Shown here in pieces: positions 6,816 through 64,000 of a stretch of DNA of 64,000 nucleotides. Origin of the DNA: an uncultured virus (IMG/VR IMGVR_UViG_3300030060_003029). Taxonomy: Duplodnaviria; Heunggongvirae; Uroviricota; Caudoviricetes; Crassvirales. The notes beneath the pieces were generated by a model. The model was not told the origin of the DNA. It saw only the letters and a program-made list of their open reading frames with translations, and made no database searches. The stretch lies in the IMG/VR virus record IMGVR_UViG_3300030060_003029. One strand, 5' to 3'. Position numbers and translations under genes: made by a program. Positions within the stretch are counted from its first letter, which is position 1; each line of letters starts with the position of its first letter.

Positions 6816-6844
6816 CAAATATAAGAAATAATTATTTATATTTG
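6816..6844. promoter_or_regulatory. Back-to-back divergent promoters (TATATTTG on - at 6816-6823 and on + at 6837-6844)
   Basis: Two perfect TAnnTTTG elements in the 82-bp gap between divergent operons. Confidence 0.8.
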
Positions 6845-7190: not shown

Positions 7191-8483
7191 ATGCCAAGAG
7201 TAGGAAAAAAGAAATTCCCATATACCAAGAAGGGTATAGCACAAGCAAAAGCTTATGCTAAGAAAAACGATTTACCAATAATTTATACTGAAGATACTAA
7301 GTCAGGGATAGCTATACCTAGTTATGCTGAAGGTGGTGGAGTAAGATATTACGAATCTCAAAGAGCAGGGGCTAGTGTCACTCCATATATGCCAGGTGGT
7401 GAAGGAGGATCTGGTGGAATGGCAGCAGGTGCTGCACTAGGATCAGCTCTAGCATCAAAAAAGGGATCTCCTGAGGAAGGAGAATATACTGCTCCAAAGG
7501 GTTCATGTCCAGAGGGACAAGCTATGGATGCTGCTGGTAATTGTTTTGATGTTGACAAATATAAAACAGATGATGACGATAATGAAGGAGATAAAGTGTC
7601 AGACTTCAACCCACAAGTTGACCCAGAAACTGGTATAGGTTCAGACCATGTGCCTGAAGGTGATGAGCCACCTGAAGGTGGGGATGGTAAAGATAGAGGA
7701 GGTGTTAGTGAAGAACATGATAGACAAAGAGGTACCACAAGGTCTTATGATGAAGAGGGGAATATGACTCGTACAAATAAGCAAGGAAATGTTGTTGGTG
7801 GTACTAAAGAGCAAAGAATAGCAAGAAATAGGACATACGCTAAAGATGGACAACCAATAACAAAAGATGAATTTGATAAATATAAATCTATCCACGAACA
7901 ACAAAGTGCTGGAGCAGGTGGTGATCGTAGTAAGGCAGGTTTTTATAAGGATGGCAAGCCAATAACAGAAGATGAATATGGTTCAATGTCAGCTGTCCAG
8001 AAACGACAAAATGTGTCAATTACGAAGCCAAGAGGTGAAGGAGGTGGGGATCCATCACAACCAGTAACTGCTCAAGCAAATAGAAAAACTGAAAGAGAGC
8101 AAACTCCAATTAGTTTAAAAGAAAAAAAAGTTTCTAGCATAGGTGGTGGAGATAAAGGTGATAAGGGTCTTGGTGCATTAGCTAAAAACATAAAGAAAGA
8201 TGGTGGTGGTTCTGGAGAAGGACTTGCTAGCAAATTAAAAGGAGATGGAGATGGGATTTTAAAAGGAGATGGAGATGGGCCTTTAGCTAACTTAGGTAAA
8301 GGTGATGGAGATGGGCCTTTAGCTAACTTAGGTAAAGATGCTAAAAAAGGTGCTATAGTTAGGCCTAAAAGAAAAAGTAAGAAAATAAAGTACAAACATG
8401 GTGGAAAAGTTAGGGCTAATAAGAAGGGTGTTGCCATTATAATAGCTATAGGTAGACCAAAAGTTAACAGAAAAAAAAGATAA
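7191..8483 (+). CDS. Low-complexity Gly/Lys/acidic protein with GG motifs
   Basis: Long ORF in operon; basic N-terminal module MPRVGKKKFPYTKKG; YAEGG and YKHGG motifs. Confidence 0.75.
   Translation: MPRVGKKKFPYTKKGIAQAKAYAKKNDLPIIYTEDTKSGIAIPSYAEGGGVRYYESQRAGASVTPYMPGGEGGSGGMAAGAALGSALASKKGSPEEGEYTAPKGSCPEGQAMDAAGNCFDVDKYKTDDDDNEGDKVSDFNPQVDPETGIGSDHVPEGDEPPEGGDGKDRGGVSEEHDRQRGTTRSYDEEGNMTRTNKQGNVVGGTKEQRIARNRTYAKDGQPITKDEFDKYKSIHEQQSAGAGGDRSKAGFYKDGKPITEDEYGSMSAVQKRQNVSITKPRGEGGGDPSQPVTAQANRKTEREQTPISLKEKKVSSIGGGDKGDKGLGALAKNIKKDGGGSGEGLASKLKGDGDGILKGDGDGPLANLGKGDGDGPLANLGKDAKKGAIVRPKRKSKKIKYKHGGKVRANKKGVAIIIAIGRPKVNRKKR
8238..8337 (+). repeat. Intragenic tandem repeat encoding KGDGDG(PLANLG), 36-nt unit
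   Basis: Two near-identical 36-nt units starting at 8262 and 8298, plus a partial unit at 8238. Confidence 0.9.
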
Positions 8484-15941: not shown

Positions 15942-18011
15942 ATGTCTGCTCCAATAATATTAAATCCACTAAGCAAAGGTAAGGTAATTGATATTCAAGG
16001 GTTAAAGATACAGTTACCTAAACAACCATCTAAGTCGTTGATTCTATATTCTGATAAACCTAAGAAAGATCAAAGGTGGGTTAGAGAAGAAATGCCTAAG
16101 AGTCTTACAAGAGAAAATGCAGCAGATTACTATGAGTATATAGAACAAGAGTTCAAAAGAAGAAGGGATGGTGTTTGGTTTATGAACAATGGTCACCCAA
16201 CCTACATTACAGGTAGTCATTATATGTTTATACAATGGTCAAATATAGACGTTGGTTACCCTGACTATAGAGACGCTAATAGAAAGTTTTTTTTATTTTG
16301 GCAAGCCTGTAAAATAGATCCCAATTGTATGGGTATGTGTTTCTTAAAGAACAGGCGTTCTGGCTTCTCTTATATGGCTAGTGCTGAAATGGTTAATCAA
16401 GCTACTCAAACATATGAATCTAATTTTGGTTTATTATCTAAGACAGGTTCTGATGCTAAGACTATGTTTACAGATAAAGTTGTTAGAATATATAGAAGGT
16501 ACCCATTCTTCTTTCAACCAATACAGGATGGTTCAAGTAATCCAAGAGTAGAGTTAGCCTTTAGAGAGCCAGCTAAAAAGATAACAAAAAAAAATAAACA
16601 TATACAACAATCAGAAGCTCTTAATAGTGTTATAGATTGGAGAAACACAGCAGACAATAGTTATGATGGTATGAAACTTAAATTACTTGTTCATGATGAG
16701 GCAGGAAAATGGACTGGCTCAACATCAATTGCTAAAAACTGGTCTGTTACACAAACGTGTTTGCTTCTTGGTAGAAAAATTGTAGGTAAATGTATGATGG
16801 GTTCTACTGCCAATAAACTAGAAGATGGTGGTTTAGAGTACAAAAACTTATATTACGACTCTGATGTAACAGACAAAGATTTAAACAGAAGAACTAAATC
16901 AGGTTTATATTCTTTATTTATACCATCTTATGAAAACCTAGAGGGTTTTATTGATGAGTATGGTTTCTCTATTGTTGATACACCCAAAAAACCAGTTATG
17001 GGAATGGATGATGTTAACATAGATATTGGAGCAAAAGATTATATAAAGAACAGAAGAGATGGTTTAAAAAATAATACTGCTGAATTATCAGAGTTTAAAA
17101 GACAGTTTCCCTTTACATCTGAAGAAGCTTTTAGGAATGATTCCATGTCTAGCGTATTTGATGTAGAGAAAATATATCAACAAATGGACTATAATGAAGT
17201 TGTTGAAAACTTAACAACTAGGGGTGATTTTATATGGAAAAATGGTATTCAAGACAGCGAAGTTATATGGATACCAAATAGCAAAGGTAAGTGGGAGGTG
17301 TGCTGGTTTCCTGATAAAGGTAGGCAAAATTCTATACAATTAAAACACACAAAAAAAACACCAGGAAATTCTCAATTCTTAGTTGCTGGATGTGACCCAT
17401 ATGACCATGATACAACAACAGATGGAAGAAGGTCAAATGCATCATGTCATATATATCATAAGTTTACCATGGATGAAAATTCTCCATGCGAACAATTTGT
17501 TTGCGAATATATAAACAGGCCACCAAAGGCAGATATATTTTATGAAGACATGATTAAGCAATGTGTTTTTTATGGTTGCCCAATACTTGTTGAAAATAAT
17601 AAAATAGGTATAATAAAATACTTTGAAAGAAGGGGTTATTATGAATACTTAATGGATAGACCTGAATCCACTCACACAGACTTTAGTAAAAAACAAAAAA
17701 CAAAAGGTATCCCTGGTTCTGGTATAGCTGTTATCAACGCCCAAGCTGAGGCTGTAGCTACTTATATTTATGACCACGTAGGCATAAAACCAGGGACTGA
17801 AGAAATGGGTAAATGTTATTTTAATAGGCTTTTAGATGATTGGAGTAGATTTGATATAGGTAACAGAACTAAGTTTGATGCAACAATTAGTTCTAGTTTA
17901 GCATTATTGGCATCACAAAAATTCGTCTCAATTAAGGAAGAATCGCCAAAATTTGTTAAATTTGTAAAAACTTATAATAATAAGGGGGTCTTATCTCAAA
18001 AAATACGATAA
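15942..18011 (+). CDS. terL: Terminase large subunit
   Basis: Walker A-like LKNRRSGFS, Walker B LLVHDEAGKW, coupling motif GST, nuclease AGCDPYD and KFDATIS. Confidence 0.95.
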   Translation: MSAPIILNPLSKGKVIDIQGLKIQLPKQPSKSLILYSDKPKKDQRWVREEMPKSLTRENAADYYEYIEQEFKRRRDGVWFMNNGHPTYITGSHYMFIQWSNIDVGYPDYRDANRKFFLFWQACKIDPNCMGMCFLKNRRSGFSYMASAEMVNQATQTYESNFGLLSKTGSDAKTMFTDKVVRIYRRYPFFFQPIQDGSSNPRVELAFREPAKKITKKNKHIQQSEALNSVIDWRNTADNSYDGMKLKLLVHDEAGKWTGSTSIAKNWSVTQTCLLLGRKIVGKCMMGSTANKLEDGGLEYKNLYYDSDVTDKDLNRRTKSGLYSLFIPSYENLEGFIDEYGFSIVDTPKKPVMGMDDVNIDIGAKDYIKNRRDGLKNNTAELSEFKRQFPFTSEEAFRNDSMSSVFDVEKIYQQMDYNEVVENLTTRGDFIWKNGIQDSEVIWIPNSKGKWEVCWFPDKGRQNSIQLKHTKKTPGNSQFLVAGCDPYDHDTTTDGRRSNASCHIYHKFTMDENSPCEQFVCEYINRPPKADIFYEDMIKQCVFYGCPILVENNKIGIIKYFERRGYYEYLMDRPESTHTDFSKKQKTKGIPGSGIAVINAQAEAVATYIYDHVGIKPGTEEMGKCYFNRLLDDWSRFDIGNRTKFDATISSSLALLASQKFVSIKEESPKFVKFVKTYNNKGVLSQKIR

Positions 18012-23238: not shown

Positions 23239-23646
23239 ATGGATTCAATATTACAAGAAAAATTCCTATACTTTCAAGAGGCTAAGTCTGGAGGAGGAAG
23301 TACAGTAGGTGCAGATGATGTAGCTATGTATAAAATCTCTGACTTTTTAGGTTTTGATACTCAAGCTGGTGACACTAACGCAACAACTCTAAACATGAGA
23401 TTTAAGCCTATGAAAAGGTCTGCTCTTGTTACTGATGAGGGTGGTGTTGGTGAAGAAACAGATGTTATGGTATTAGCTGTTAAAGCTAGTACTCAGAAGT
23501 CTGTTATGCAAAACATCCTTGATAAAATCAATGAGCCACTTGCAAGGGATGGAGGTTTTATTGTGATTGCTGATGTTCCAAGTTCTGAGTTTGTAGATGC
23601 TAATATAACTGGTTGTACAGTTACATTAAGAGCTGCTACAGCATAA
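23239..23646 (+). CDS. Putative capsid accessory/decoration protein (paralog A)
   Basis: Follows MCP; shares FLYF...D(V/L)(M/I)xL...IN...GFxVIAD pattern with the next gene. Confidence 0.6.
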   Translation: MDSILQEKFLYFQEAKSGGGSTVGADDVAMYKISDFLGFDTQAGDTNATTLNMRFKPMKRSALVTDEGGVGEETDVMVLAVKASTQKSVMQNILDKINEPLARDGGFIVIADVPSSEFVDANITGCTVTLRAATA

Positions 23647-47438: not shown

Positions 47439-47939
47439 ATGAAATTAGAAGTATTAAGAATATCAAGTGGCCCAGAATCAACCTCTGGAATATTATTTAT
47501 AGTAGATGATTCTGCAGAAAACCCACATGGAGAAGGTTTTAGATGTAAAAGAAGTTTTGTGTGTTATACATTAGAAGATGAACATAGAGATGAAAAAAAA
47601 TATGGAGAAACAAGGATCCCTGCTGGGACATATAAAATTAAACTTAGAAAAGAAGGTGGATACCATCAAAAATATTCTAAAAGATTTCCTAAAATTCATC
47701 GTGGTATGCTTCATATTACTGACGTACCTAACTTTGAGTACATCCTTATTCATTGTGGTAATACTGATGAGCATACTGCAGGATGCTTACTCGTGGGGGA
47801 CTCGCAAGAAAATAATCAAATAAATGAGAATGGTTTTATAGGTAAGTCAACACAGGCTTATAAAAGAATATATCCTAGGATAGCAGAAGCCCTAGTTAAT
47901 AACAAAGAGGTGTTAATAACTTACAAAGATATTGCCTAA
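47439..47939 (+). CDS. DUF5675-like protein, putative endolysin
   Basis: CYTLEDE...ETRIPAGTY...ILIHCGNTDEHTAGCLLVG. Confidence 0.8.
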   Translation: MKLEVLRISSGPESTSGILFIVDDSAENPHGEGFRCKRSFVCYTLEDEHRDEKKYGETRIPAGTYKIKLRKEGGYHQKYSKRFPKIHRGMLHITDVPNFEYILIHCGNTDEHTAGCLLVGDSQENNQINENGFIGKSTQAYKRIYPRIAEALVNNKEVLITYKDIA

Positions 47940-47956
47940 CTAACAAATAAATTCAC

Positions 47957-47964
47957 TATATTTG
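47957..47964 (+). promoter_or_regulatory. -7 promoter element TATATTTG driving a short RNA
   Basis: Perfect motif in the intergenic gap; TGTTAATAACTT box at 47911-47922. Confidence 0.75.
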
Positions 47965-47969
47965 ACAGT

Positions 47970-48036
47970 AAGTTTCATAATGTTTAGTTTTGGGGGGTTT
48001 TGTTTGATTCTGTATTAAACTGCCCCCCATCCTTTT
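47970..48036 (+). ncRNA. Candidate small RNA antisense to start-codon regions
   Basis: Promoter, then an unstructured GUUUCAUAAUGUUUAGUUUU tract, then a GGGGGG/CCCCCC + GUUUGAU/AUUAAAC hairpin and a short U tract; no plausible ORF. Confidence 0.55.
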
Positions 48037-48046
48037 AATTAGTAAT

Positions 48047-48328
48047 ATGAGAGATTATAAAGACGAATATAAGAAGTTTCAATCTAGCCCTAAGCAAAGA
48101 GCTAATAATAGAAAAAGAAAGAGAGATAGGTATAAACTAGAAAAGGGTGGAAAAGTTTCTAAGTTTGATGGAAAAGAAGTTCATCATACTGAGGGCATAA
48201 ACTCAGATAAACTAAGCGTTGTGTCTGCTAAAAAAAATAGAGGTAAAAAAGGAGAAGGAGGGAGAAAGAAAGGTGTTGGACATAATTACCCTAAAAAAAG
48301 AAAGTACGTAAAACGTAATGTCAATTAA
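48047..48328 (+). CDS. Basic HNH-like small protein
   Basis: DGKEVHH...LSVVSAKKNR. Confidence 0.6.
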   Translation: MRDYKDEYKKFQSSPKQRANNRKRKRDRYKLEKGGKVSKFDGKEVHHTEGINSDKLSVVSAKKNRGKKGEGGRKKGVGHNYPKKRKYVKRNVN

Positions 48329-48713
48329 AGAAAAAAAAACAAAGCAGTTAGGGATGAATCCTGGAACTGCTGCCCATAGACTTAGAAAATCTATTTTATT
48401 TAGCTTTGCTAAGAAGTTGGGCTTTAATTGGTGTTACCAATGTGCAACAGAAATAGTAGATATAGATAATTTTACAATAGAACATAAAAAACCTTGGCTA
48501 GATTCTGATAATCCACCTGAGGTTTTTTTTGATCTAGACAATATAGCCTTTTCACATGCTGGTTGTAATTATCGTGCAGCTAGAGTTAAACATGGTATGC
48601 CATGTCCATCAGTTACAGCCTACAGAAAAGGGTGTAGATGTGATGGGTGTAAAAAAGCTAGAGCTGAATATAGAAAGAAAAGAAAAGAATTAAAAGGAAG
48701 AAAAAATGAGTAA
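48318..48713 (+). CDS. HNH endonuclease-like protein with zinc motifs
   Basis: CYQC, IEHKKPW, NIAFSHAGCN, GCRCDGC. Confidence 0.75.
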   Translation: MSIKEKKTKQLGMNPGTAAHRLRKSILFSFAKKLGFNWCYQCATEIVDIDNFTIEHKKPWLDSDNPPEVFFDLDNIAFSHAGCNYRAARVKHGMPCPSVTAYRKGCRCDGCKKARAEYRKKRKELKGRKNE

Positions 48714-48936
48714 ACCAAGTTTTATAGATAAAGCAAAAAGTTTAATAAGAGACACAACAAACCACGTTCTAAATCGTGCACAAAACGTATCTAAAGAAGA
48801 GTATTTGAGGAGAGCTATGGTATGTGATACTTGTGTTCACTTTGTGAAAAAAGATAATATATGTGGTGTTTGTGGTTGCTACATGGATGTAAAAGCTAAA
48901 TGGCAAACCTCAACTTGCCCTAAAGACAAATGGTAA
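48706..48936 (+). CDS. Cys-rich metal-binding small protein (DUF6171-like)
   Basis: CDTC...CGVCGC...CPKDKW. Confidence 0.7.
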   Translation: MSKPSFIDKAKSLIRDTTNHVLNRAQNVSKEEYLRRAMVCDTCVHFVKKDNICGVCGCYMDVKAKWQTSTCPKDKW

Positions 48937-48937
48937 T

Positions 48938-49081
48938 ATGAAAAGAATTGGTTTTGGTTTTCAGTTTTCTAATGGCATAGTATTTGGCATAAGACATTAC
49001 GAGCCAGACAACGTATGTAACTATTATGAAGTTCAGGTATTTTTAGGCTTGATGGTTGTATTTGTAACTATAGAATATTAG
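48938..49081 (+). CDS. Small hypothetical protein, 47 aa (MKRIGFGFQF...), not in ORF track
   Basis: Starts 1 nt after the previous stop and converges with the minus-strand operon. Confidence 0.65.
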   Translation: MKRIGFGFQFSNGIVFGIRHYEPDNVCNYYEVQVFLGLMVVFVTIEY

Positions 49082-55900: not shown

Positions 55901-56380
55901 TTACTTTAGCATGTATTTTTTCTTAAAATTTATTAACAATCCATGTATTCTTTCTTTCTCTAATTTCTCATTCATCCATAGATCTTTATATCTTCCTATG
56001 GTTTTGTCTTGTTCTTCTATCTTTTTTTTCATATCTATATTTCTAGATGCTTCAATGTCTTCACTATTAACATATAGTCCTAGATGATCCATTGATTTAT
56101 TATAGAAATTTCTATACATGATATTTGTTTTATAATCTATGTCGTGCATACCTCTTGCATGAACAATAGATGCGTGGTTTTTATATCCCAATATATCTCT
56201 CAAGTTGTGGTTAGTATAGTTAAAGTTTCTATATAGTAAATTAACCAATACTTGCCTTGCTATAACCACGTTTGCGTGTCTTGTAGCAGTTCTGTTTCTT
56301 ATTATTTTATCTTCAGGAACATTACAAACTTCAGATACTATATTTATTATATTCTTTTCTAGTATTTCCATGATTCTCAT
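55901..56380 (-). CDS. DnaA C-terminal (domain IV)-like HTH protein with coiled coil
   Basis: NVVIARQVLVNLL...LRDILGYKNHASIVHA parallels DnaA RQIAMYL...GRDHTTVLHA. Confidence 0.75.
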   Translation of the reverse strand: MRIMEILEKNIINIVSEVCNVPEDKIIRNRTATRHANVVIARQVLVNLLYRNFNYTNHNLRDILGYKNHASIVHARGMHDIDYKTNIMYRNFYNKSMDHLGLYVNSEDIEASRNIDMKKKIEEQDKTIGRYKDLWMNEKLEKERIHGLLINFKKKYMLK

Positions 56381-56511
56381 TTTATTTTATTATTTACTTT
56401 AATTGTTATTATTGATGTTATCATTATTATTCCCATAACTATTATTAAATCTAATCCATCAGGAACACATCCCATGTTCGCCAACCAGTAGTCTTGCCAG
56501 TATTGTTTCAT
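56377..56511 (-). CDS. Small membrane protein, 44 aa (MKQYWQDYW...), not in ORF track
   Basis: ATGA overlap with the next gene; one hydrophobic segment. Confidence 0.65.
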   Translation of the reverse strand: MKQYWQDYWLANMGCVPDGLDLIIVMGIIMITSIITIKVNNKIK

Positions 56512-56513
56512 AA

Positions 56514-56750
56514 TTAATCCATTTTATAGTTAAAATCATATTTTAAAACCATAGAGTCCAGTTTCCAACCAATATCCATCATCTCTGTCTTTAGTTCTAC
56601 TATCTCCACATTTAGAGATGTTATCATCATATCTTGAGTTTTATCCTCTACGTTTTTAATTGTTTCGTTAAATGTTTTTATTGTGCCATTAACCATTATT
56701 AGTATAATTATAGTTAAGATCCAACACATAGTAATTGATATTTTTTTCAT
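56514..56750 (-). CDS. Membrane-anchored coiled-coil protein
   Basis: N-terminal TM segment. Confidence 0.65.
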   Translation of the reverse strand: MKKISITMCWILTIIILIMVNGTIKTFNETIKNVEDKTQDMMITSLNVEIVELKTEMMDIGWKLDSMVLKYDFNYKMD

Positions 56751-56959
56751 AATGATTTTTTTTCTAATTGTTTTATATACTCTTTAGCTTCATTCTTAGT
56801 TCTAAATAACTTTCTTACAGGATCTATATTATATATCTCCTCGCTAACATCGTCCCAACAGCTCCATAAAATTTCGTACTTATGTAAATTATAGATCTTG
56901 TCTGTATGTTTAATTACGATATAATAATCATCTCCTTCTTTAAATGGGTATCTTTCCAT
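56747..56959 (-). CDS. Hypothetical early protein
   Basis: YPFKEGDDYY...SCWDDVSEE; ATGA coupling. Confidence 0.7.
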   Translation of the reverse strand: MERYPFKEGDDYYIVIKHTDKIYNLHKYEILWSCWDDVSEEIYNIDPVRKLFRTKNEAKEYIKQLEKKSL

Positions 56960-56961
56960 AA

Positions 56962-57216
56962 CTAATCCTTTTTCTCTTTAAGCCCCATGTCTTCAGCAAA
57001 GTATCTTATACTTTCCCATACTTGATTTGCAGTTCCATCATTATCTAATGCTTGATCTAACACATCCATTGCTTCTGAATCAGTACACTCATAATTAGAT
57101 TGTACATCTTCAATATGATACATAGAATATATGTAATATCCATTTTCCCTTAATAATTCTTTTGCATCTGCGATCTTATCGTTAGTCGCTATAATATCTT
57201 CTGGTAGTTGTTTCAT
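56962..57216 (-). CDS. Hypothetical early protein (start revised to MKQLPED)
   Basis: AATTATG start context; avoids overlap with the 58-aa ORF upstream. Confidence 0.7.
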   Translation of the reverse strand: MKQLPEDIIATNDKIADAKELLRENGYYIYSMYHIEDVQSNYECTDSEAMDVLDQALDNDGTANQVWESIRYFAEDMGLKEKKD

Positions 57217-57235
57217 AATTTTATTCTTTTTTATT

Positions 57236-57412
57236 TTAATGTCTACTATAATTTTCATTTTCATTTAGTTGGACTAGTCTTGTTGCCAATCTTTCCAACA
57301 TTACAATTTCTTTATCAAAATCACTTTCTAAATTTTTTTCCTCAATTAAGTTTATGGTTTTATCCACTAACTCAATTAATGATTCTAAATTATTACTTTG
57401 CCATTTTTCCAT
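57236..57412 (-). CDS. Micro-ORF, 58 aa (MEKWQSNNL...)
   Basis: AAACATTATG start; fills gap. Confidence 0.65.
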   Translation of the reverse strand: MEKWQSNNLESLIELVDKTINLIEEKNLESDFDKEIVMLERLATRLVQLNENENYSRH

Positions 57413-57424
57413 AATGTTTATTTA

Positions 57425-57565
57425 TTAGTCGTTCCAATATGCTTTCGCACAATCATCAGAACAAAATTTATACTCAGTTAATACTTCTCCACAGAACGCA
57501 CATTCTGTTTTGTCTGCGAGATCTTGGTATGGATCAGTCATATTTAAATAATACCACTTCATCAT
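57425..57565 (-). CDS. Zinc-finger micro-protein, 46 aa
   Basis: CAFCGE...FCSDDC. Confidence 0.7.
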   Translation of the reverse strand: MMKWYYLNMTDPYQDLADKTECAFCGEVLTEYKFCSDDCAKAYWND

Positions 57566-57569
57566 AGTT

Positions 57570-57710
57570 TTATTTTTTTCTTGTTAATATATCTATTACA
57601 AAATCTATCTCATCTCTTTCATCGCTACCTATTCTATCAGACCAACCTAACATAGACCTTAATGATTCTATTGCTATCTCTTTGTTTACTTGTTCAATTT
57701 TCTTTTCCAT
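57570..57710 (-). CDS. Micro-ORF, 46 aa (MEKKIEQVNK...)
   Basis: AAAATTATG start; tight packing. Confidence 0.65.
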   Translation of the reverse strand: MEKKIEQVNKEIAIESLRSMLGWSDRIGSDERDEIDFVIDILTRKK

Positions 57711-57714
57711 AATT

Positions 57715-57867
57715 TTATCCCTTTTTTAATTTCTTTAATTTTAATTCTAATCTCTCTATCTCTTTTCTTTTCTCCCAAAATAGATCTAATTCTTTTTTGG
57801 TTATAAATGGAGATATTATTTTTTCAATACCCCATTGTTTTCTTAATTTTTCTAAATCTCTATCCAT
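57715..57867 (-). CDS. Micro-ORF, 50 aa (MDRDLEKLRK...)
   Basis: TAATTATG start; tight packing. Confidence 0.65.
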   Translation of the reverse strand: MDRDLEKLRKQWGIEKIISPFITKKELDLFWEKRKEIERLELKLKKLKKG

Positions 57868-57869
57868 AA

Positions 57870-58268
57870 TTATTTATAAAATTTAATTAACTCTTTTGGG
57901 TTACCCTCAAATACAAACTTTTTCTCATAGTTATCATATATCTTTATTTGTATATCTCCTGTATCATCGCAAACCTCAACGTGATACTCATACTCTTGCC
58001 CCATATTATTATTATTTACTGGAAATATATATATGCCCCCAACTTCTTTTTTCTTTTCAGATATTAATTGTGCAATAAGACAAGCAACGCCACTTGCCTT
58101 TGACATATCTTCCCTGTCTCCTACGCCATTAGTTAGTTTTTTACTATCTAAAAATTCTGCTAATTCACAACCCCAAGCGTAAGGATGTCCATCAAATTGT
58201 TTATACATATTTAATGTTGCTTGTGTATCTCTTTTTTCTTTAATGTATGTAAGTGAACGTGTTCCCAT
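57870..58268 (-). CDS. Conserved phage early protein (MGTRS family)
   Basis: MGTRSLT...MYKQFDGHP...GCELAEFL...EYEY. Confidence 0.75.
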   Translation of the reverse strand: MGTRSLTYIKEKRDTQATLNMYKQFDGHPYAWGCELAEFLDSKKLTNGVGDREDMSKASGVACLIAQLISEKKKEVGGIYIFPVNNNNMGQEYEYHVEVCDDTGDIQIKIYDNYEKKFVFEGNPKELIKFYK

Positions 58269-58307
58269 AATGTTTATTTGTTTAGTTAATGTTTCAGTTT
58301 CTTATTG

Positions 58308-58338
58308 TAAAGTTAATTATTTTTTCGTTAATTGCAAA
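58308..58338 (-). promoter_or_regulatory. Early promoter TTTG-N19-TAACTTTA
   Basis: Bacteroidota -33/-7 architecture with a 19-nt spacer. Confidence 0.7.
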
Positions 58339-58352
58339 CTATTTTGACATAA

Positions 58353-58376
58353 GTTATTAACAATGTTATTAACAAT
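58353..58376. repeat. Tandem 12-mer GTTATTAACAAT x2 (operator-like)
   Basis: Perfect tandem copy just upstream of the -33 element; recurs at 59905-59928 and 62243-62254. Confidence 0.8.
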
Positions 58377-58518
58377 CTTCAAGTTCATCTGCATATTCAC
58401 ACGCTTCATTATATAGATTGCTATCTATATTGCCCACGTAATCTACAAAGTGATTAAACCAAGCTAAATACTTATCTTTTATTTCAATTTGCTTTTCTAA
58501 GTCGTTTCTTTTTTTCAT
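58369..58518 (-). CDS. Micro-ORF, 49 aa (MKKRNDLEK...)
   Basis: ATGA overlap with upstream micro-ORF. Confidence 0.65.
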   Translation of the reverse strand: MKKRNDLEKQIEIKDKYLAWFNHFVDYVGNIDSNLYNEACEYADELEDC

Positions 58519-58646
58519 AGTAATTCTTTTTGTAATTTATTAATTAATTTACCTAATGTTCTGCCTGTATCAGTTTTATCAAACTCGTACTTAACCTCTA
58601 AATTGTAAAGTACCTTAAATAGTTCTGCTTGTGTTTCTTGATTCAT
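58515..58646 (-). CDS. Micro-ORF, 43 aa (MNQETQAEL...)
   Basis: AAAATTATG start; coupled to the next gene. Confidence 0.65.
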   Translation of the reverse strand: MNQETQAELFKVLYNLEVKYEFDKTDTGRTLGKLINKLQKELL

Positions 58647-58650
58647 AATT

Positions 58651-58938
58651 TTATTTTTTTAATTTTAATTCTCTATACTTTTTTGCAATATCTTCCAGAT
58701 TATCTAACTCACTATTACAATACAATCCTAATATATTATTAGTTAGTGTTTCGTATTCATCATACACATCATTATAAAAATCTTGTGCATCTTCATTAAA
58801 TATCATTGTATCAGATTGGTTTTCTTCTGAACTTCCCTCTGTCCATGTTTCTTCCCCAAATCTTTCTTCTGTTATCCTTGTTGCTAACTCATCTATGTAT
58901 TCCATAAATCTTGAATTTTCTATATATATCTTGCTCAT
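58651..58938 (-). CDS. Acidic hypothetical early protein
   Basis: ORF with AAAATTATG start. Confidence 0.7.
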   Translation of the reverse strand: MSKIYIENSRFMEYIDELATRITEERFGEETWTEGSSEENQSDTMIFNEDAQDFYNDVYDEYETLTNNILGLYCNSELDNLEDIAKKYRELKLKK

Positions 58939-58942
58939 AATT

Positions 58943-59158
58943 TTATTTATTTATAGTTATATAATCCTGTTCTATTGTGCTATAAGATCCATTTTCCTCT
59001 TGTTCTAATTTACTTATTGAAACATAAGATCCTTTTTCTGTGCTTAAACTAATTACTTCTTTTGCCCTATCTATTGCCTTTTTTTCTGTAAATTCTATTT
59101 CAGTTTCCAGAACATCACTTTCTATCATATACTCTATTTGATATTGTATTTTTTCCAT
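58943..59158 (-). CDS. Acidic hypothetical early protein
   Basis: ORF with AAAATTATG start. Confidence 0.7.
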   Translation of the reverse strand: MEKIQYQIEYMIESDVLETEIEFTEKKAIDRAKEVISLSTEKGSYVSISKLEQEENGSYSTIEQDYITINK

Positions 59159-59170
59159 AATTTTATTTAT

Positions 59171-59296
59171 TTATTGTTCATTAATTAATCTTTTGCAATC
59201 ACAACCATAGCATAGTATAGTTCCATCATATTGTTCTACATAATCTTCTAATTCTGTTTCAAAACAATTTTCGCAATAATACTTTTCTTTTTCCAT
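59171..59296 (-). CDS. Zinc-finger micro-protein, 41 aa
   Basis: CENC...LCYGC. Confidence 0.65.
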   Translation of the reverse strand: MEKEKYYCENCFETELEDYVEQYDGTILCYGCDCKRLINEQ

Positions 59297-59461
59297 AACT
59301 TTTATTCTTTTTTATTAACACTACTTGACTTTGTCAAATTTTACTTGTACCTTGCCCCTCGTTTTTATTTAGGAGATTATTCAAAAAGAGACTTTTTAAA
59401 TATCTCTCTCAATACTCTCTCTGAATAGTAGATTTGTATTAGGGATAATTATATCCTATTT

Positions 59462-59653
59462 TTATTTAATTTTAATTAATTGATCTTCTGTTAAGTCTTC
59501 GCATAGATATTCTAATGGTTTAAACCTTATAGGTTTTAATTGATACTTTTGTACATTTCCATTGTTATCTAATTTTTCGTTTCCATCTTCATCTACCATA
59601 TAGAATTGAATATCCCATACTGATACTGAATAGTTTTTATTTTCTTTTTCCAT
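59462..59653 (-). CDS. Hypothetical early protein
   Basis: ORF with AAAATTATG start. Confidence 0.7.
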   Translation of the reverse strand: MEKENKNYSVSVWDIQFYMVDEDGNEKLDNNGNVQKYQLKPIRFKPLEYLCEDLTEDQLIKIK

Positions 59654-59849
59654 AATTTTATTTAGTTTTTAAAGTGTCTTTGTAAGGACTTGGTGGACTT
59701 CTTGTTGTTTTTTTACCCCTACCTTCTTTGTTTCACAAGTGGACACTAACATTAATGTTTCTTTATTTTATTTTGTTTTTCTTTCAGATAATTCTTGTTG
59801 TTTTACTTCTGTATTTATTATCATACTCAGAAGGTTAATACTCTTTATA

Positions 59850-59880
59850 CAAATATACTGCTTTTCTTGTTAATGTCAAA
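59850..59880 (-). promoter_or_regulatory. Early promoter TTTG-N19-TATATTTG
   Basis: Consensus Bacteroidota -33/-7 promoter; tandem GwTATTAACAA boxes at 59905-59928. Confidence 0.85.
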
Positions 59881-60046
59881 TTATTTTACATTTATTATTC
59901 CAAAGATATTAACAAAGTTATTAACAATTGTTTTTTTGTTTGGATCAAAACACGCATGTTTTTTTCATTCATGCTTGTCATAGTAATATAATCATAGTAA
60001 TTTTTTTTGGGGAGAACATTCATCTCCCCTTGTGTATAACTAATCA

Positions 60047-60559
60047 TTATGCAGTAATTTTATTTAGTAATCTGTATTGATAATCATAATCATCTAAGTC
60101 ATTATAAAAATTCCCATCTTCATCTTCTTGAACAAAGTCCTCTCTATCGTGTGTGTAAATAGCATTTCCATCTTGATTTGTCCACCTTTCATTAGATTCT
60201 TTGATAGATTCTTTTATCTGTATTTCTTTCTGTTCTATTTCTTCTTCATACATCTTCTTTGTGAATAGTGCAACCTCGTTTACGTTACATAGTATTCCTA
60301 TAGCATAGATTGTGTCATCTATTTCAAATACTTGATATGTTCCATGGTTTTCAAATTCTCCTTCTTCATATTCTCCTACACCAAATACATATCCATCTCC
60401 ATCTTTCCAAACCTTGTCAGCATGTTGTTCGTTGACTCTTTTTTTAGCAAAGTTCATAGCTTTCCTTTTGGTGTCAAATACTTGTATTTCTGTTCCATTG
60501 TTAGAAGAATATCCTTCTCCATTCCAAGTATCTATTACGATATATTTTTTAGTTGTCAT
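60047..60559 (-). CDS. Acidic hypothetical early protein
   Basis: 170-aa ORF with AAAACTATG start. Confidence 0.75.
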   Translation of the reverse strand: MTTKKYIVIDTWNGEGYSSNNGTEIQVFDTKRKAMNFAKKRVNEQHADKVWKDGDGYVFGVGEYEEGEFENHGTYQVFEIDDTIYAIGILCNVNEVALFTKKMYEEEIEQKEIQIKESIKESNERWTNQDGNAIYTHDREDFVQEDEDGNFYNDLDDYDYQYRLLNKITA

Positions 60560-60610
60560 AGTTTTTAGTTTTTTGTAGGGGCAGTAGTTAGCTACCCCTA
60601 ATTAATAATT

Positions 60611-61540
60611 CTATTTATTTAGTATGTACTCTACTGCTTTTTGTGCTTGACTACTCGCATAAACAATCTCTCTTGGGTTGTTTTTTAGGTGCTTTATCCA
60701 ACCATTGATGTATGCTTGACTATTCTTGTCATTATCCTTTGGCTTTAGTCCTAATATGTTAGTTAGAAACATTGCACCTAATTCTGCGACTAATTCCTCT
60801 TGACTATATTTAGTCTTATTAGAGTTTGTAGCGTTCAAAGTCTTTCTGTTTAATAAGTCCTTATGTCCTGTTGAATGAGTCAATTCGTGGAAGAATACTT
60901 TATAATAGTCATCAGATGAAATAAATGTATTTGGACTGCTCATGTTGATTAGATGTTGACTTGGCTTGTAGTGGCAACCAATGTTGTCTCTATGTTCCAA
61001 TGTGGGCTTCTTTCTCATATTATCGTATACTGAATCTGCTTCTTTGATTGACTCAAATATACTACCCTTGATTACTTTTTGAATGTTGTGTTTGTCCTCT
61101 ATGCCCTCAACACAATCAAGATTGAATACTCTAAAATAACTCGCACTCATTGACTTGTCAACATCTTTCATGGTGTAACCCTTTGGAATTACTAAATCTT
61201 CCAATCTACTGCCCTTTAGATATATTCTTTTGCCTTTGCTATCTGTTACAAAATAAGCTACTCTCCAATTGACTACAATGTCTGAAACACTACCTTTTTT
61301 AACTTTGCCACCTAAATTCTTAGCTTGATTAAATGTGATAAATTCTCTGCTTGAGTAGTTATTGAAGTACATTGACATACTCAATAACATTTGATTAATA
61401 CCTTTGTAAATCTTGCCAGTGGTGTGACTTATCGTCATAGTATCTGTGTTACCTGCCCATGATTGAAACCACTCATGCCCACCTTCCTCAAGTCCTTTGA
61501 TTACTTGCTCTGTGATAATTTGATATACATCTTTTTTCAT
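60611..61540 (-). CDS. ardC: ArdC-family antirestriction / ssDNA-binding protein (DUF1738 plus zincin-like domain)
   Basis: VYQIITEQVI, YKGINQMLL, TFNQAKNLGGKVKKG, VFNLD, HELTHSTGH...YSQEELVAELGA. Confidence 0.93.
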   Translation of the reverse strand: MKKDVYQIITEQVIKGLEEGGHEWFQSWAGNTDTMTISHTTGKIYKGINQMLLSMSMYFNNYSSREFITFNQAKNLGGKVKKGSVSDIVVNWRVAYFVTDSKGKRIYLKGSRLEDLVIPKGYTMKDVDKSMSASYFRVFNLDCVEGIEDKHNIQKVIKGSIFESIKEADSVYDNMRKKPTLEHRDNIGCHYKPSQHLINMSSPNTFISSDDYYKVFFHELTHSTGHKDLLNRKTLNATNSNKTKYSQEELVAELGAMFLTNILGLKPKDNDKNSQAYINGWIKHLKNNPREIVYASSQAQKAVEYILNK

Positions 61541-61560
61541 AATAATTAGTTTAGTTTTTT

Positions 61561-61639
61561 AGTAATAGACACCCCTTCTAAGTCTTCCTCTTAGCGTACT
61601 AAGGGGTGTTTCGCTTTTTTAAAGCTCATCAGTATTACT
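61561..61639 (-). ncRNA. Hammerhead ribozyme (type I)
   Basis: Minus strand: AGUAAUA-CUGAUGA-GCUU(UAAAA)AAGC-GAA-ACACCCCUU...AAGGGGUGU-C-UAUUACU; complete core, three stems, GUC cleavage triplet. Confidence 0.93.
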
Positions 61640-61827
61640 TATTCCCATATATAATCATAATACTCATCTACTATAATTAGATTAACCTCTAAAGAATTGT
61701 GTATTTTACTTATGTGGTTAGTTTCCATATTATCATTTTCAATATGTTTAACTAATTTCTTCAAATCCCTTAATAATAATATCTTTGCTTCTTGATATTT
61801 TTTATCTGTATACTTAGCTTCATTCAT
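61639..61827 (-). CDS. Hypothetical early protein
   Basis: ORF with AAACATTATG start; its stop abuts the ribozyme. Confidence 0.7.
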   Translation of the reverse strand: MNEAKYTDKKYQEAKILLLRDLKKLVKHIENDNMETNHISKIHNSLEVNLIIVDEYYDYIWE

Positions 61828-61851
61828 AATGTTTTAAATTTTAATTATTAA

Positions 61852-62019
61852 TTACTTTGCTCTTTCCTCTATTAATTCTTTTGCTATTTTTAAACTGAAT
61901 TTAAGTGACATATCTAATTGCCCTTCTAAATCTTTTAATTGCCCTTCCAATTCCTCTATTCTTTTTCTTTGCTTGATTATTGTATCATAATCTCTATCTC
62001 TTAATACCTCTGTTTTCAT
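61852..62019 (-). CDS. First early gene, 55-aa coiled-coil micro-protein (MKTEVLRDRD...), not in ORF track
   Basis: AAACACATTATG start downstream of the promoter at 62068-62098; internal LEGQL repeat. Confidence 0.7.
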   Translation of the reverse strand: MKTEVLRDRDYDTIIKQRKRIEELEGQLKDLEGQLDMSLKFSLKIAKELIEERAK

Positions 62020-62067
62020 AATGTGTTTAGTTTAAGTTAGTGATTAACCTCGTGTCAATCATTTCTG

Positions 62068-62098
62068 TAAAACTACAAAGACTTTTTTAATTTGCAAA
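62068..62098 (-). promoter_or_regulatory. First early promoter TTTG-N19-TAGTTTTA, followed by a 5' hairpin (62041-62061)
   Basis: Same 19-nt spacing as the other two early promoters. Confidence 0.7.
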
Positions 62099-62131
62099 CA
62101 TTTTTTACATTATTTAATTCTTCTTGAGGAA

Positions 62132-62150
62132 ATTTATAATGATTCTAAAT
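62132..62150. promoter_or_regulatory. Fur-box-like 9-1-9 palindrome ATTTATAAT-G-ATTCTAAAT
   Basis: One mismatch from a perfect 19-bp inverted repeat, 33 bp upstream of the early promoter. Confidence 0.55.
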
Positions 62151-62470
62151 AAGGAATAGATGTACAATCTACTATTGGAATTGCGTATGATGTGCGATAT
62201 AATAATACATTAAATTGATAAAGTCAATAGATAATAAATAAAGTTATTAACAATTGTTAGTTGATTGTAAAATGTAAAGAAAATTAACAGAGGGGAATTG
62301 ATTCTAATGAAGAAACAAAAACTTTTAATAGTATCGTGCCACACAAGATAGATATGCTCTTAAACGTAAGATTTTGAGGTAATTAGAATGTTTTATGATT
62401 CTTCAAATTGTTTTGGGGATAATGTGTGTATTTTGTAAGGGGGTTATGTCAATTCTTTATACTACTCACA

Positions 62471-62522
62471 GAACACTCATTCCAGAATAGTTGTTGGAAC
62501 ACTCATTCCAAAATAGTTGTGG
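62471..62522. repeat. 26-bp tandem direct repeat GAACACTCATTCCARAATAGTTGTKG x2
   Basis: Two adjacent copies, 24/26 identical, in the long non-coding region. Confidence 0.9.
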
Positions 62523-62854
62523 TCTTGCCTAATGTTTTGTAGTACATTGATTAGGTAGATAGATATAGTATGTAATGTCATTCACGTTACAATAGATACT
62601 ATATATATGATATCTATAATGTATGTAGTTAGTTGGGGGTGGGGGTAAATATATTCACTTGGGGATTAAAATTGCACGTAGCATATATGTATATAATACC
62701 CACCCTAAAAATTTCTCAAAAAAAATTTTAACACAAAAAAAATATTGACTTAACATTAGATTAACATGCTGGTGTTATATTGCAGTATGAGAATAGAAGT
62801 TTCTAAAATAATATATGTTCTAATAATGATTGGCGTATACGTTGTTTCGCTATT

Positions 62855-63803: not shown

Positions 63804-64000
63804 NNNNNNNNNNACCTCCTTCGCCCCAGTTAGCAGCCCCTACTTTTCTACACTTAGCCATAGCACCACTTCTATAGGCAGAGGTCTTAGGGCCATATCT
63901 TGAAACAACTTTATGATAACAAGCATCTTTTGTTGTACCACCACTAACATACTTCCTCTTAGCCATCTTAGCGTCTTGCTTAGGATTATGTTTTTTCTGA
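63605..64000. repeat. Terminal overlap, right copy with 10-N scaffold gap
   Basis: Matches 1-485; the N run at 63804-63813 stands in for 99 bp (200-298). Confidence 0.95.

Follow-up and report, generated by a model that had tools for sequence, protein, structure and literature searches.

A putative FopS-like small RNA antisense to translation starts in a Bacteroidota-type phage

The window and the RNA unit

The window, by which we mean the whole stretch of 64,000 nucleotides that was analysed, is a podovirus-like genome with 33% GC, from a marine virus. A family search found a P22-like portal, an SU10-type capsid protein and a crAss-type muzzle protein among its products, and a terminase gene lies at 15942. 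Matches to the capsid protein occur in 77 of 50,697 phage records, with about 30% identity at best; 76 of these 77 are Flavobacterium, Cellulophaga or Maribacter phages, so that the host is probably a member of the Flavobacteriales. Structural genes extend on the + strand up to 47939; the - strand, from 62019 down to 49211, carries small genes, ardC and replication genes. The term early is used here for 20 starts from 56380 to 62019, and is a presumptive label given by position. No tRNA or tmRNA was found in the window, and an Rfam search of the window gave no match at gathering level and weak unrelated ones at E up to 10.

The structural block ends with a DUF5675 gene (47439..47939, + strand; Pfam PF18925, E 1.8e-27), the transcript of which would continue into the unit described here. 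The unit opens with a -7 promoter box of the Bacteroidota type (TAnnTTTG), identified by its sequence, TATATTTG (47957..47964, + strand). It is followed by a predicted small RNA of about 69 nt (47968..48036, + strand), delimited by its fold and, at the 5' end, by promoter spacing. This RNA would comprise an unpaired seed, a 16-nt tract antisense to an A-rich leader plus AUG (47976..47991, + strand), which stands out by its conservation and by the duplex ranking given below, and a GC-clamped hairpin with a U tail that resembles an intrinsic terminator (47991..48036, + strand; hairpin at about 47991-48029, degenerate tail to 48036). A second TAnnTTTG box is nested within the seed (47985..47992, + strand), 20 nt downstream of the TTTG in the first one. 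This inner box, missed in the preliminary description, may be a second promoter, from which transcription would begin within the stem and escape termination. Four small genes, one HNH-like and one with DUF6171, come next on the + strand (48047..49081), the first start lying 10 nt behind the U tail.

The preliminary description had placed a promoter box, tract, hairpin and U tail at 47957-48036 and had seen no credible ORF there. All of these elements were located and the absence of an ORF was borne out, the length of the frame opened by the antisense ATG varying among relatives. The promoter TATATTTG is present as claimed, but the 8-mer is not rare, with 22 copies on the two strands of the window, and its last base is A in eight of the nine lineage variants compared below. 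Since the box is so common, the case for the RNA unit rests on conservation. One copy of the unit was found in the window. The 69-nt RNA from 47968 folds at -21.0 kcal/mol into an open 5' part and one hairpin, with 90% of the tract unpaired, and the fold of the 121-nt region has z = -2.68, with 2 of 200 shuffles equally stable. In the window the U tail is weak; most relatives have a cleaner one. A generic sigma-70 scan of this DNA, with a model not suited to Bacteroidota, gave results at chance level.

Conservation in the lineage

Using the upstream DUF5675 protein alone as a query, we retrieved 80 related loci. The unit lies directly behind the DUF5675 gene in the eight closest of them (83-99% identity), and the other 72 have no unit at that place, one of these loci ending there; the nearest record, G001, does not extend over the unit. 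Nine lineage variants were compared, four of which came from pattern searches that demanded all or part of the tract; across the five retrieved independently of the pattern the tract is invariant. The mean pairwise identity of the nine variants is 0.99 in the tract, 0.91 in the box, 0.65 in the hairpin and 0.22 in the 5' spacer, for comparison with 0.65 at the third codon positions (silent sites) of the neighbouring gene. The preliminary description had made its proposal depend on a CAU-centred tract that is conserved in relatives, and this is what the comparison gives, 15 of the 16 tract columns being invariant against 32.5% of silent sites. The unit very probably encodes a functional small RNA.

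The box reads TAT(A/C)TTT(G/A) in all nine variants. The predicted RNAs are 59-69 nt long, with 73-92% of the tract unpaired, and four relatives start with a GUGUUU stretch like that of FopS. RNAalifold on an automatic alignment gave double changes at 2 of 14 pairs and a covariation term of about 0 because the 3' arm was misaligned, and the pairs were afterwards read per sequence; read in this way, the outer stem is preserved, with G-C to A-U double changes in two relatives (L004 and L390). In L202, among the unrelated phages with this layout, the genes behind the unit face the opposite way and no same-strand gene follows, so that the unit is not a leader in that phage. A minus-strand minigene read from the antisense ATG was considered and rejected, as its 1, 5, 12 or 19 codons give no conserved peptide.

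Pairing with the phage's own start regions

The duplex ranking covered 75 ATG start regions of the window, one gene with a wrong start coordinate being omitted. The nine best-pairing starts all belong to early-region genes, and the mean duplex energy is -10.2 for the 20 early, -7.6 for 13 middle and -6.9 for the 42 other starts (p = 1.4e-4). Candidate targets on the - strand are the start of the first early gene (ATG 62019; 62012..62039), at -15.7 kcal/mol and a net -13.5 after opening costs, that of the ArdC-family anti-restriction gene (ATG 61540; 61533..61560; -15.0, net -14.2), and the starts at 57412 (57405..57432; -14.7), 58268 (58261..58288; -13.7), 59653 (59646..59673; -13.5), 61827 (61820..61847; -13.0) and 60559 (60552..60579; -12.9). 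The leader end at 57412 precedes, in identical form, different genes in relatives. The starts at 59653 and 60559 were absent from the preliminary description, the longest contiguous matches of which were reproduced: 12 at 61827, 11 at 62019 (with 7 more past a 2-nt bulge), 11 at 58268 and 57412, and 10 at 61540, 57216, 56750 and 56511.

At -11 kcal/mol or lower we counted 9 of the 20 early starts and none of the 55 other own starts. The same threshold was reached by 121 of 819 starts in 19 other phages, by 9 of 172 in two cultured relatives and, after removal of a selected hit, by 4 of 44 in Bacteroidota-like chromosome pieces; the own non-early starts are depleted of matches relative to other phages (0/55 vs 15%). 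When the whole window was scanned by sliding, 6 of the 29 best non-self sites were close to early starts, no other start had one nearby, and the remaining 23 were internal, away from starts.

How much of this match is specific depends on what is held constant. With fully shuffled seeds the early mean was attained in 0 of 500 cases, and with CAU fixed in 4 of 500, which bears out the earlier expectation that the pairing exceeds that of shuffles; with CAUAAU fixed, however, 42 of 500 shuffles did as well. The ATTATG start is used by 14 of the 20 early genes vs 9 of the 55 others, so part of the seed match is a generic start pattern, and from the CAUAAU-fixed shuffles it follows that much of the match between seed and early genes is the generic start pattern of Bacteroidota. 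Leaders ending in ACATT stand before 4 of the 20 early genes and 0 of the 55 others, and recur before different genes in relatives.

Covariation of seed and target was not found in this lineage. The sole seed change in the lineage is a G to A in the record G038, and its seed pairs with its own ardC start at -11.2 against -15.8, which is weaker and is not compensated. This record ends inside ardC, most of its early region being missing, and the early regions of relatives comprised three loci for ArdC and one distant locus for gene 58268; because early regions from relatives are so few, within-lineage covariation rests on this one case.

Related units in other phages

The exact 16-mer occurs in at least 118 viral stretches, many of which are genuine start regions on the opposite strand; among the matches listed, a few are promoter-tract-terminator units in unrelated phages. 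A looser pattern matched 87 stretches and was followed by a terminator in 32 of them (27 of 65 unique), against 4 of 42 (3 of 26 unique) for a control pattern with CAT scrambled (Fisher p = 0.006), and as the motif itself is imposed by the search, only this terminator enrichment counts as evidence. A scan that did not require the tract added a unit in L038 and second copies in G005 and G006. Most records carry one copy per phage, and G005, G006 and G010 carry two. For one sub-type, a 25-base pattern matched 6 of the 87 viral stretches and had 1 match, which lacks a terminator, among 185,579 species genomes, a hint that this one sub-type is enriched in phages.

In order to compare own with foreign pairing, every seed was scored against every start set in 20 phages, one per seed group. 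Seeds pair more strongly with the starts of their own genome than under permutation (top-3 residual -1.48, 0/100000), in a statistic that takes no account of a tree, of kinship or of shared hosts. In the 11 records of 25 kb or more the own-pair advantage was matched by 403 of 100000 permutations, and the signal survives removal of starts within 3 kb (18 phages; 12 of 50000). It vanishes with reversed seeds, and shuffled seeds retain about a third of it. Five phages (G033, G014, G031, G010 and G005) have distinctive seeds that are matched best by their own starts, and the signal is not significant once these five are taken out (4382 of 50000). The window phage is neutral in this matrix, with a residual of -0.1 and a rank of 8 to 13 out of 20.

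A blastn search of the phage collection for cultured carriers gave short chance-level matches only. Two candidates were rejected, that in DAC16 being a gene-end terminator without a CAU tract and that in BT498P1 overlapping an annotated start on the other strand. In phi38:1 and elemoF no such unit was found by a promoter-plus-terminator scan, a rule that also misses the window's own copy because the U tail of the latter is weak.

Relation to FopS and other known RNAs

The FopS RNAs of Bacteroides thetaiotaomicron, a family of paralogues, measure 65-70 nt and combine a primary-sigma promoter with a 5' seed left unpaired and with a terminator. FopS-10 binds the start of susC and blocks its translation, for which compensatory mutations and translation in vitro were the evidence; a single FopS copy was observed in a phage (PMC11697453). 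The window feature resembles FopS (RF04319) at motif level in its primary-sigma -7 box near the 5' end. The predicted window RNA also has, at comparable length, an unpaired 5' stretch followed by an intrinsic terminator, and its U-rich, CAU-bearing seed would pair, as FopS does, with start codons. The relative L004 has the first 12 bases in common with FopS and likewise starts 4 nt behind its box, the distance given for FopS-10 from primers (PMC11697453). Between the window and the FopS R1' seed only the U-rich CAUA core and UUAG are common, and the GGUUAACA part is absent in the lineage. The Rfam FopS model, which has a cut-off of 56 bits, did not match the window element even with E values up to 10 allowed, and none of 24 phage records passed this cut-off (best 28 bits, L004 copy 18.9 bits). 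FopS differs further in its 12-15 chromosomal copies and its susC operon targets, compared with one copy and predicted own early targets in the window; in the window RNA, moreover, the seed stands directly against the stem and the carrier is a Flavobacteria-type phage. By anatomy and prediction, then, the window RNA resembles FopS, and by the Rfam test it is not a FopS member. Since L004 begins with the first 12 bases of FopS, shared descent is possible, and convergence on the start consensus is equally possible.

GibS of B. thetaiotaomicron is, at 145 nt, longer than the window RNA, and no match of GibS to the window appeared in the Rfam scans. It too has a long AT-rich unpaired 5' seed that lies across start codons and represses, but it differs in having a second seed (R2), a PM2 promoter, a chromosomal gene and metabolic targets, where the window RNA has one seed and a primary-sigma box (PMC7366714). 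The statement in the preliminary description that no such system had been described is therefore wrong, as FopS and GibS of Bacteroides act in this way and FopS has been seen in a phage (PMC11697453). The class of mechanism has been described before; what is new is that phages carry it, how far the family is spread, and that the carrier's own genes seem to be targeted.

The phage small RNAs P1 c4 and P4 CI repress one or a few phage lysis-lysogeny genes by pairing. Lambda OOP and aQ are likewise small RNAs which a phage makes and which repress its genes through base pairing, but they act in cis on one or few lysis-lysogeny genes (PMC12197685). In that review none of these RNAs is described as mirroring a consensus start common to many early genes, and the words 'Bacteroid' and 'Flavobacter' have 0 occurrences. 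SviR of the Vibrio cholerae satellite PLE is a trans-acting small RNA with targets in the satellite's genome as well as in that of a competing phage, although it belongs to a satellite in a gammaproteobacterial host (10.1101/2022.04.08.487710); it is a precedent for an RNA aimed outward. Our literature search, with subscription journals largely outside its coverage, found nothing on phage-encoded FopS-like RNAs that act on phage genes.

Proposed mechanism and alternatives

On balance we take the unit to be a gene for a FopS-like small RNA that damps the phage's own early genes, and we lean towards these genes being its main selected targets. The trans-acting anti-start-codon RNA of the preliminary description thus stands as the best reading, with a tract that is conserved, unpaired and early-preferring, but it has to contend with better-pairing sites outside the phage. 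Host RNA polymerase with the primary sigma factor would produce the RNA of about 69 nt, the 3' end of which would also close the structural-block mRNA. The RNA would accumulate in mid to late infection, and its seed would pair over the A-rich leader and AUG of some 7 to 9 early mRNAs, among them those of the first early gene and of ardC, and keep ribosomes from loading in the manner of FopS-10 on susC. Selection would have favoured it for damping the early genes of its own phage, with host mRNAs whose start regions are close to ideal being hit too. The late timing would follow from promoter spacing alone: three early promoters have a TTG 19 nt before the box, and the RNA promoter and four structural-block promoters have none there. 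In F. johnsoniae a -33 element was not detectable (PMC7366714).

It is rather unlikely that the RNA is aimed mainly outward, at host mRNAs with start regions close to ideal, much as FopS is directed at susC-type transporters, or at the early genes of a co-infecting phage, with the own match as a by-product of the start pattern. Some start regions outside this phage give energies of -17 to -21, which none of the own genes reaches. The start of a Flavobacteriales piperideine-6-carboxylate dehydrogenase gene (L409, L445) pairs with the window seed at -17.4, and the same start (L409:3400-3440, also L413, L430 and L445) complements the G038 variant perfectly over 22 nt, of which 5 were not demanded by the search pattern. 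With a U, as in this target, the G to A change in the seed is tolerated; with the C that the own leaders have, it is not. A repeated leader that pairs at -17 to -21 stands before several genes of a second phage group (L411, L418, L419, L421, L423, L432, L434), which has a related terminase and was followed in two fragments. The 4 of 44 chromosome starts at -11, furthermore, would mean many host sites per genome. Against this, the outside sites were retrieved from metagenomes by a 19-base pattern made from the seed (42 stretches), so that pairing quality is built in; the dehydrogenase and second-group sites are best regarded as leads selected by pattern. The depletion of own non-early starts (0/55 vs 15% in other phages) and the five phages with unusual seeds, which match their own starts best, also speak for targets within the carrier.

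A cis control element, composed of the structural-block terminator and two nested promoters with the tract kept as promoter DNA, is improbable as the full account, although it can coexist with the small-RNA model. The nested TAnnTTTG box is invariant in all nine lineage variants, and a transcript from 47997 would lose the outer stem (-3.8 vs -21.0 kcal/mol). The gene at 48047 has no other box between the U tail and its start, so the downstream genes 48047-49081 need read-through or the nested promoter, and the early promoter at 62075 has a box nearly identical to the nested one. The nested promoter may well feed these four genes and account for part of the lineage conservation. However, it leaves the invariant CAUAAU half and most family members unexplained: the inner box occurs in only 9 of 33 family members, and the box-to-box distance varies from 14 to 22 nt. 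Nor does a cis element explain the CAT dependence of the terminator enrichment, or L202, where no same-strand gene lies behind the unit.

Slightly more doubtful again is a wide reading in which a widespread class of Bacteroidota-phage RNAs, each a mirror of the ideal start region, would be a broad silencer of translation. Such an RNA would time the lytic cycle by damping early genes of its own phage, and would also be a weapon that mutes selected host genes and the early genes of a co-infecting group, namely the second phage group with its repeated leader, a 17-20-nt complement of the RNA. We give very little credit to a decoy for a host RbpB-like RRM protein or a host small-RNA pathway, acting without mRNA pairing. 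FopS RNAs do bind RbpB, which antagonises them, through their 5' portion (PMC11697453) and four relatives have the FopS-like GUGUUU, but in other phages the seeds change together with the start regions of the same genome, a dependence not required of a protein-binding site, and a scan of 75 window proteins detected no RRM family. Least likely is a neutral remnant, an inverted gene-start copy beside an ordinary terminator in AT-rich DNA, for although the identical 16-mer is often a genuine opposite-strand start and the dehydrogenase start, reversed, carries a promoter-like box before the tract, such a remnant is strongly disfavoured by the invariance of 15 of 16 tract columns vs 32.5% of silent sites, and the promoter-tract-terminator layout recurs in unrelated phages.

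Bacteroidota initiate translation without Shine-Dalgarno pairing, and therefore one short RNA that mirrors a leader plus AUG can address many genes. If the small RNA does damp the early genes of its own phage, the early-to-late switch would include a protein-free timing device of a kind not found in the literature searched. The FopS principle, known from Bacteroides of the gut, would then hold for phages of aquatic habitats too, and genes of Flavobacteria might be knocked down with an RNA of similarly simple design.

Further observations

Several features outside the main argument were recorded. The dehydrogenase start read backwards resembles the RNA gene, promoter-like box included, and this start region is a possible origin or target of the RNA. 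The leader of the second phage group, which complements the 5' part of the RNA almost completely and precedes many small genes, is also present in L447 and L448, and five copies stand before small genes in the 2.3-kb L434. Two units per genome were seen in G005 (23392-23568) and in G006 (L358, L360), where one copy has a doubled seed; the second G005 unit is the best FopS-model match seen, at 28 bits. In L105 (560-700), from a 280-kb phage, tract and terminator lie directly behind a tRNA gene without a promoter box of their own, and the RNA is possibly processed from the tRNA transcript. The unit of L038, a record retrieved with DUF5675, lies elsewhere, near 7900 on the - strand; its 5' stretch is like that of FopS, and its hairpin is longer. 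A gene of about 300-400 aa is close to the RNA gene in G019, G026, G027, G028, G031, G035, G006 and G034, and is divergent in some. A promoter-to-terminator unit that lacks the CAU tract is present twice, in identical form, on the - strand of G006 (L359); with the units resembling it in G004, G021, G026 and elemoF, it may constitute a different small-RNA family.

In the window, TATATTTG promoters lie back-to-back between two divergent gene blocks (6823-6844), and a short run of N is present near 63810. About 800 bp upstream of the first early gene (62030-62850) are without an ORF of 45 codons or more and are partly conserved in L389; this is likely an origin or terminal region. Hairpins at 61587-61606 and near 60580-60600 divide early units. 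Upstream of three early promoters there is a palindromic motif, TTGTTAATAAC (58350-58375, 59910-59930 and 62235-62260), which could serve as an operator bound by the HTH proteins of the phage (54358-54549, 55901-56380). Two early genes, with starts at 59653 and 59296 (window 59298-59470), have near-identical leaders and first codons, which suggests a duplication.
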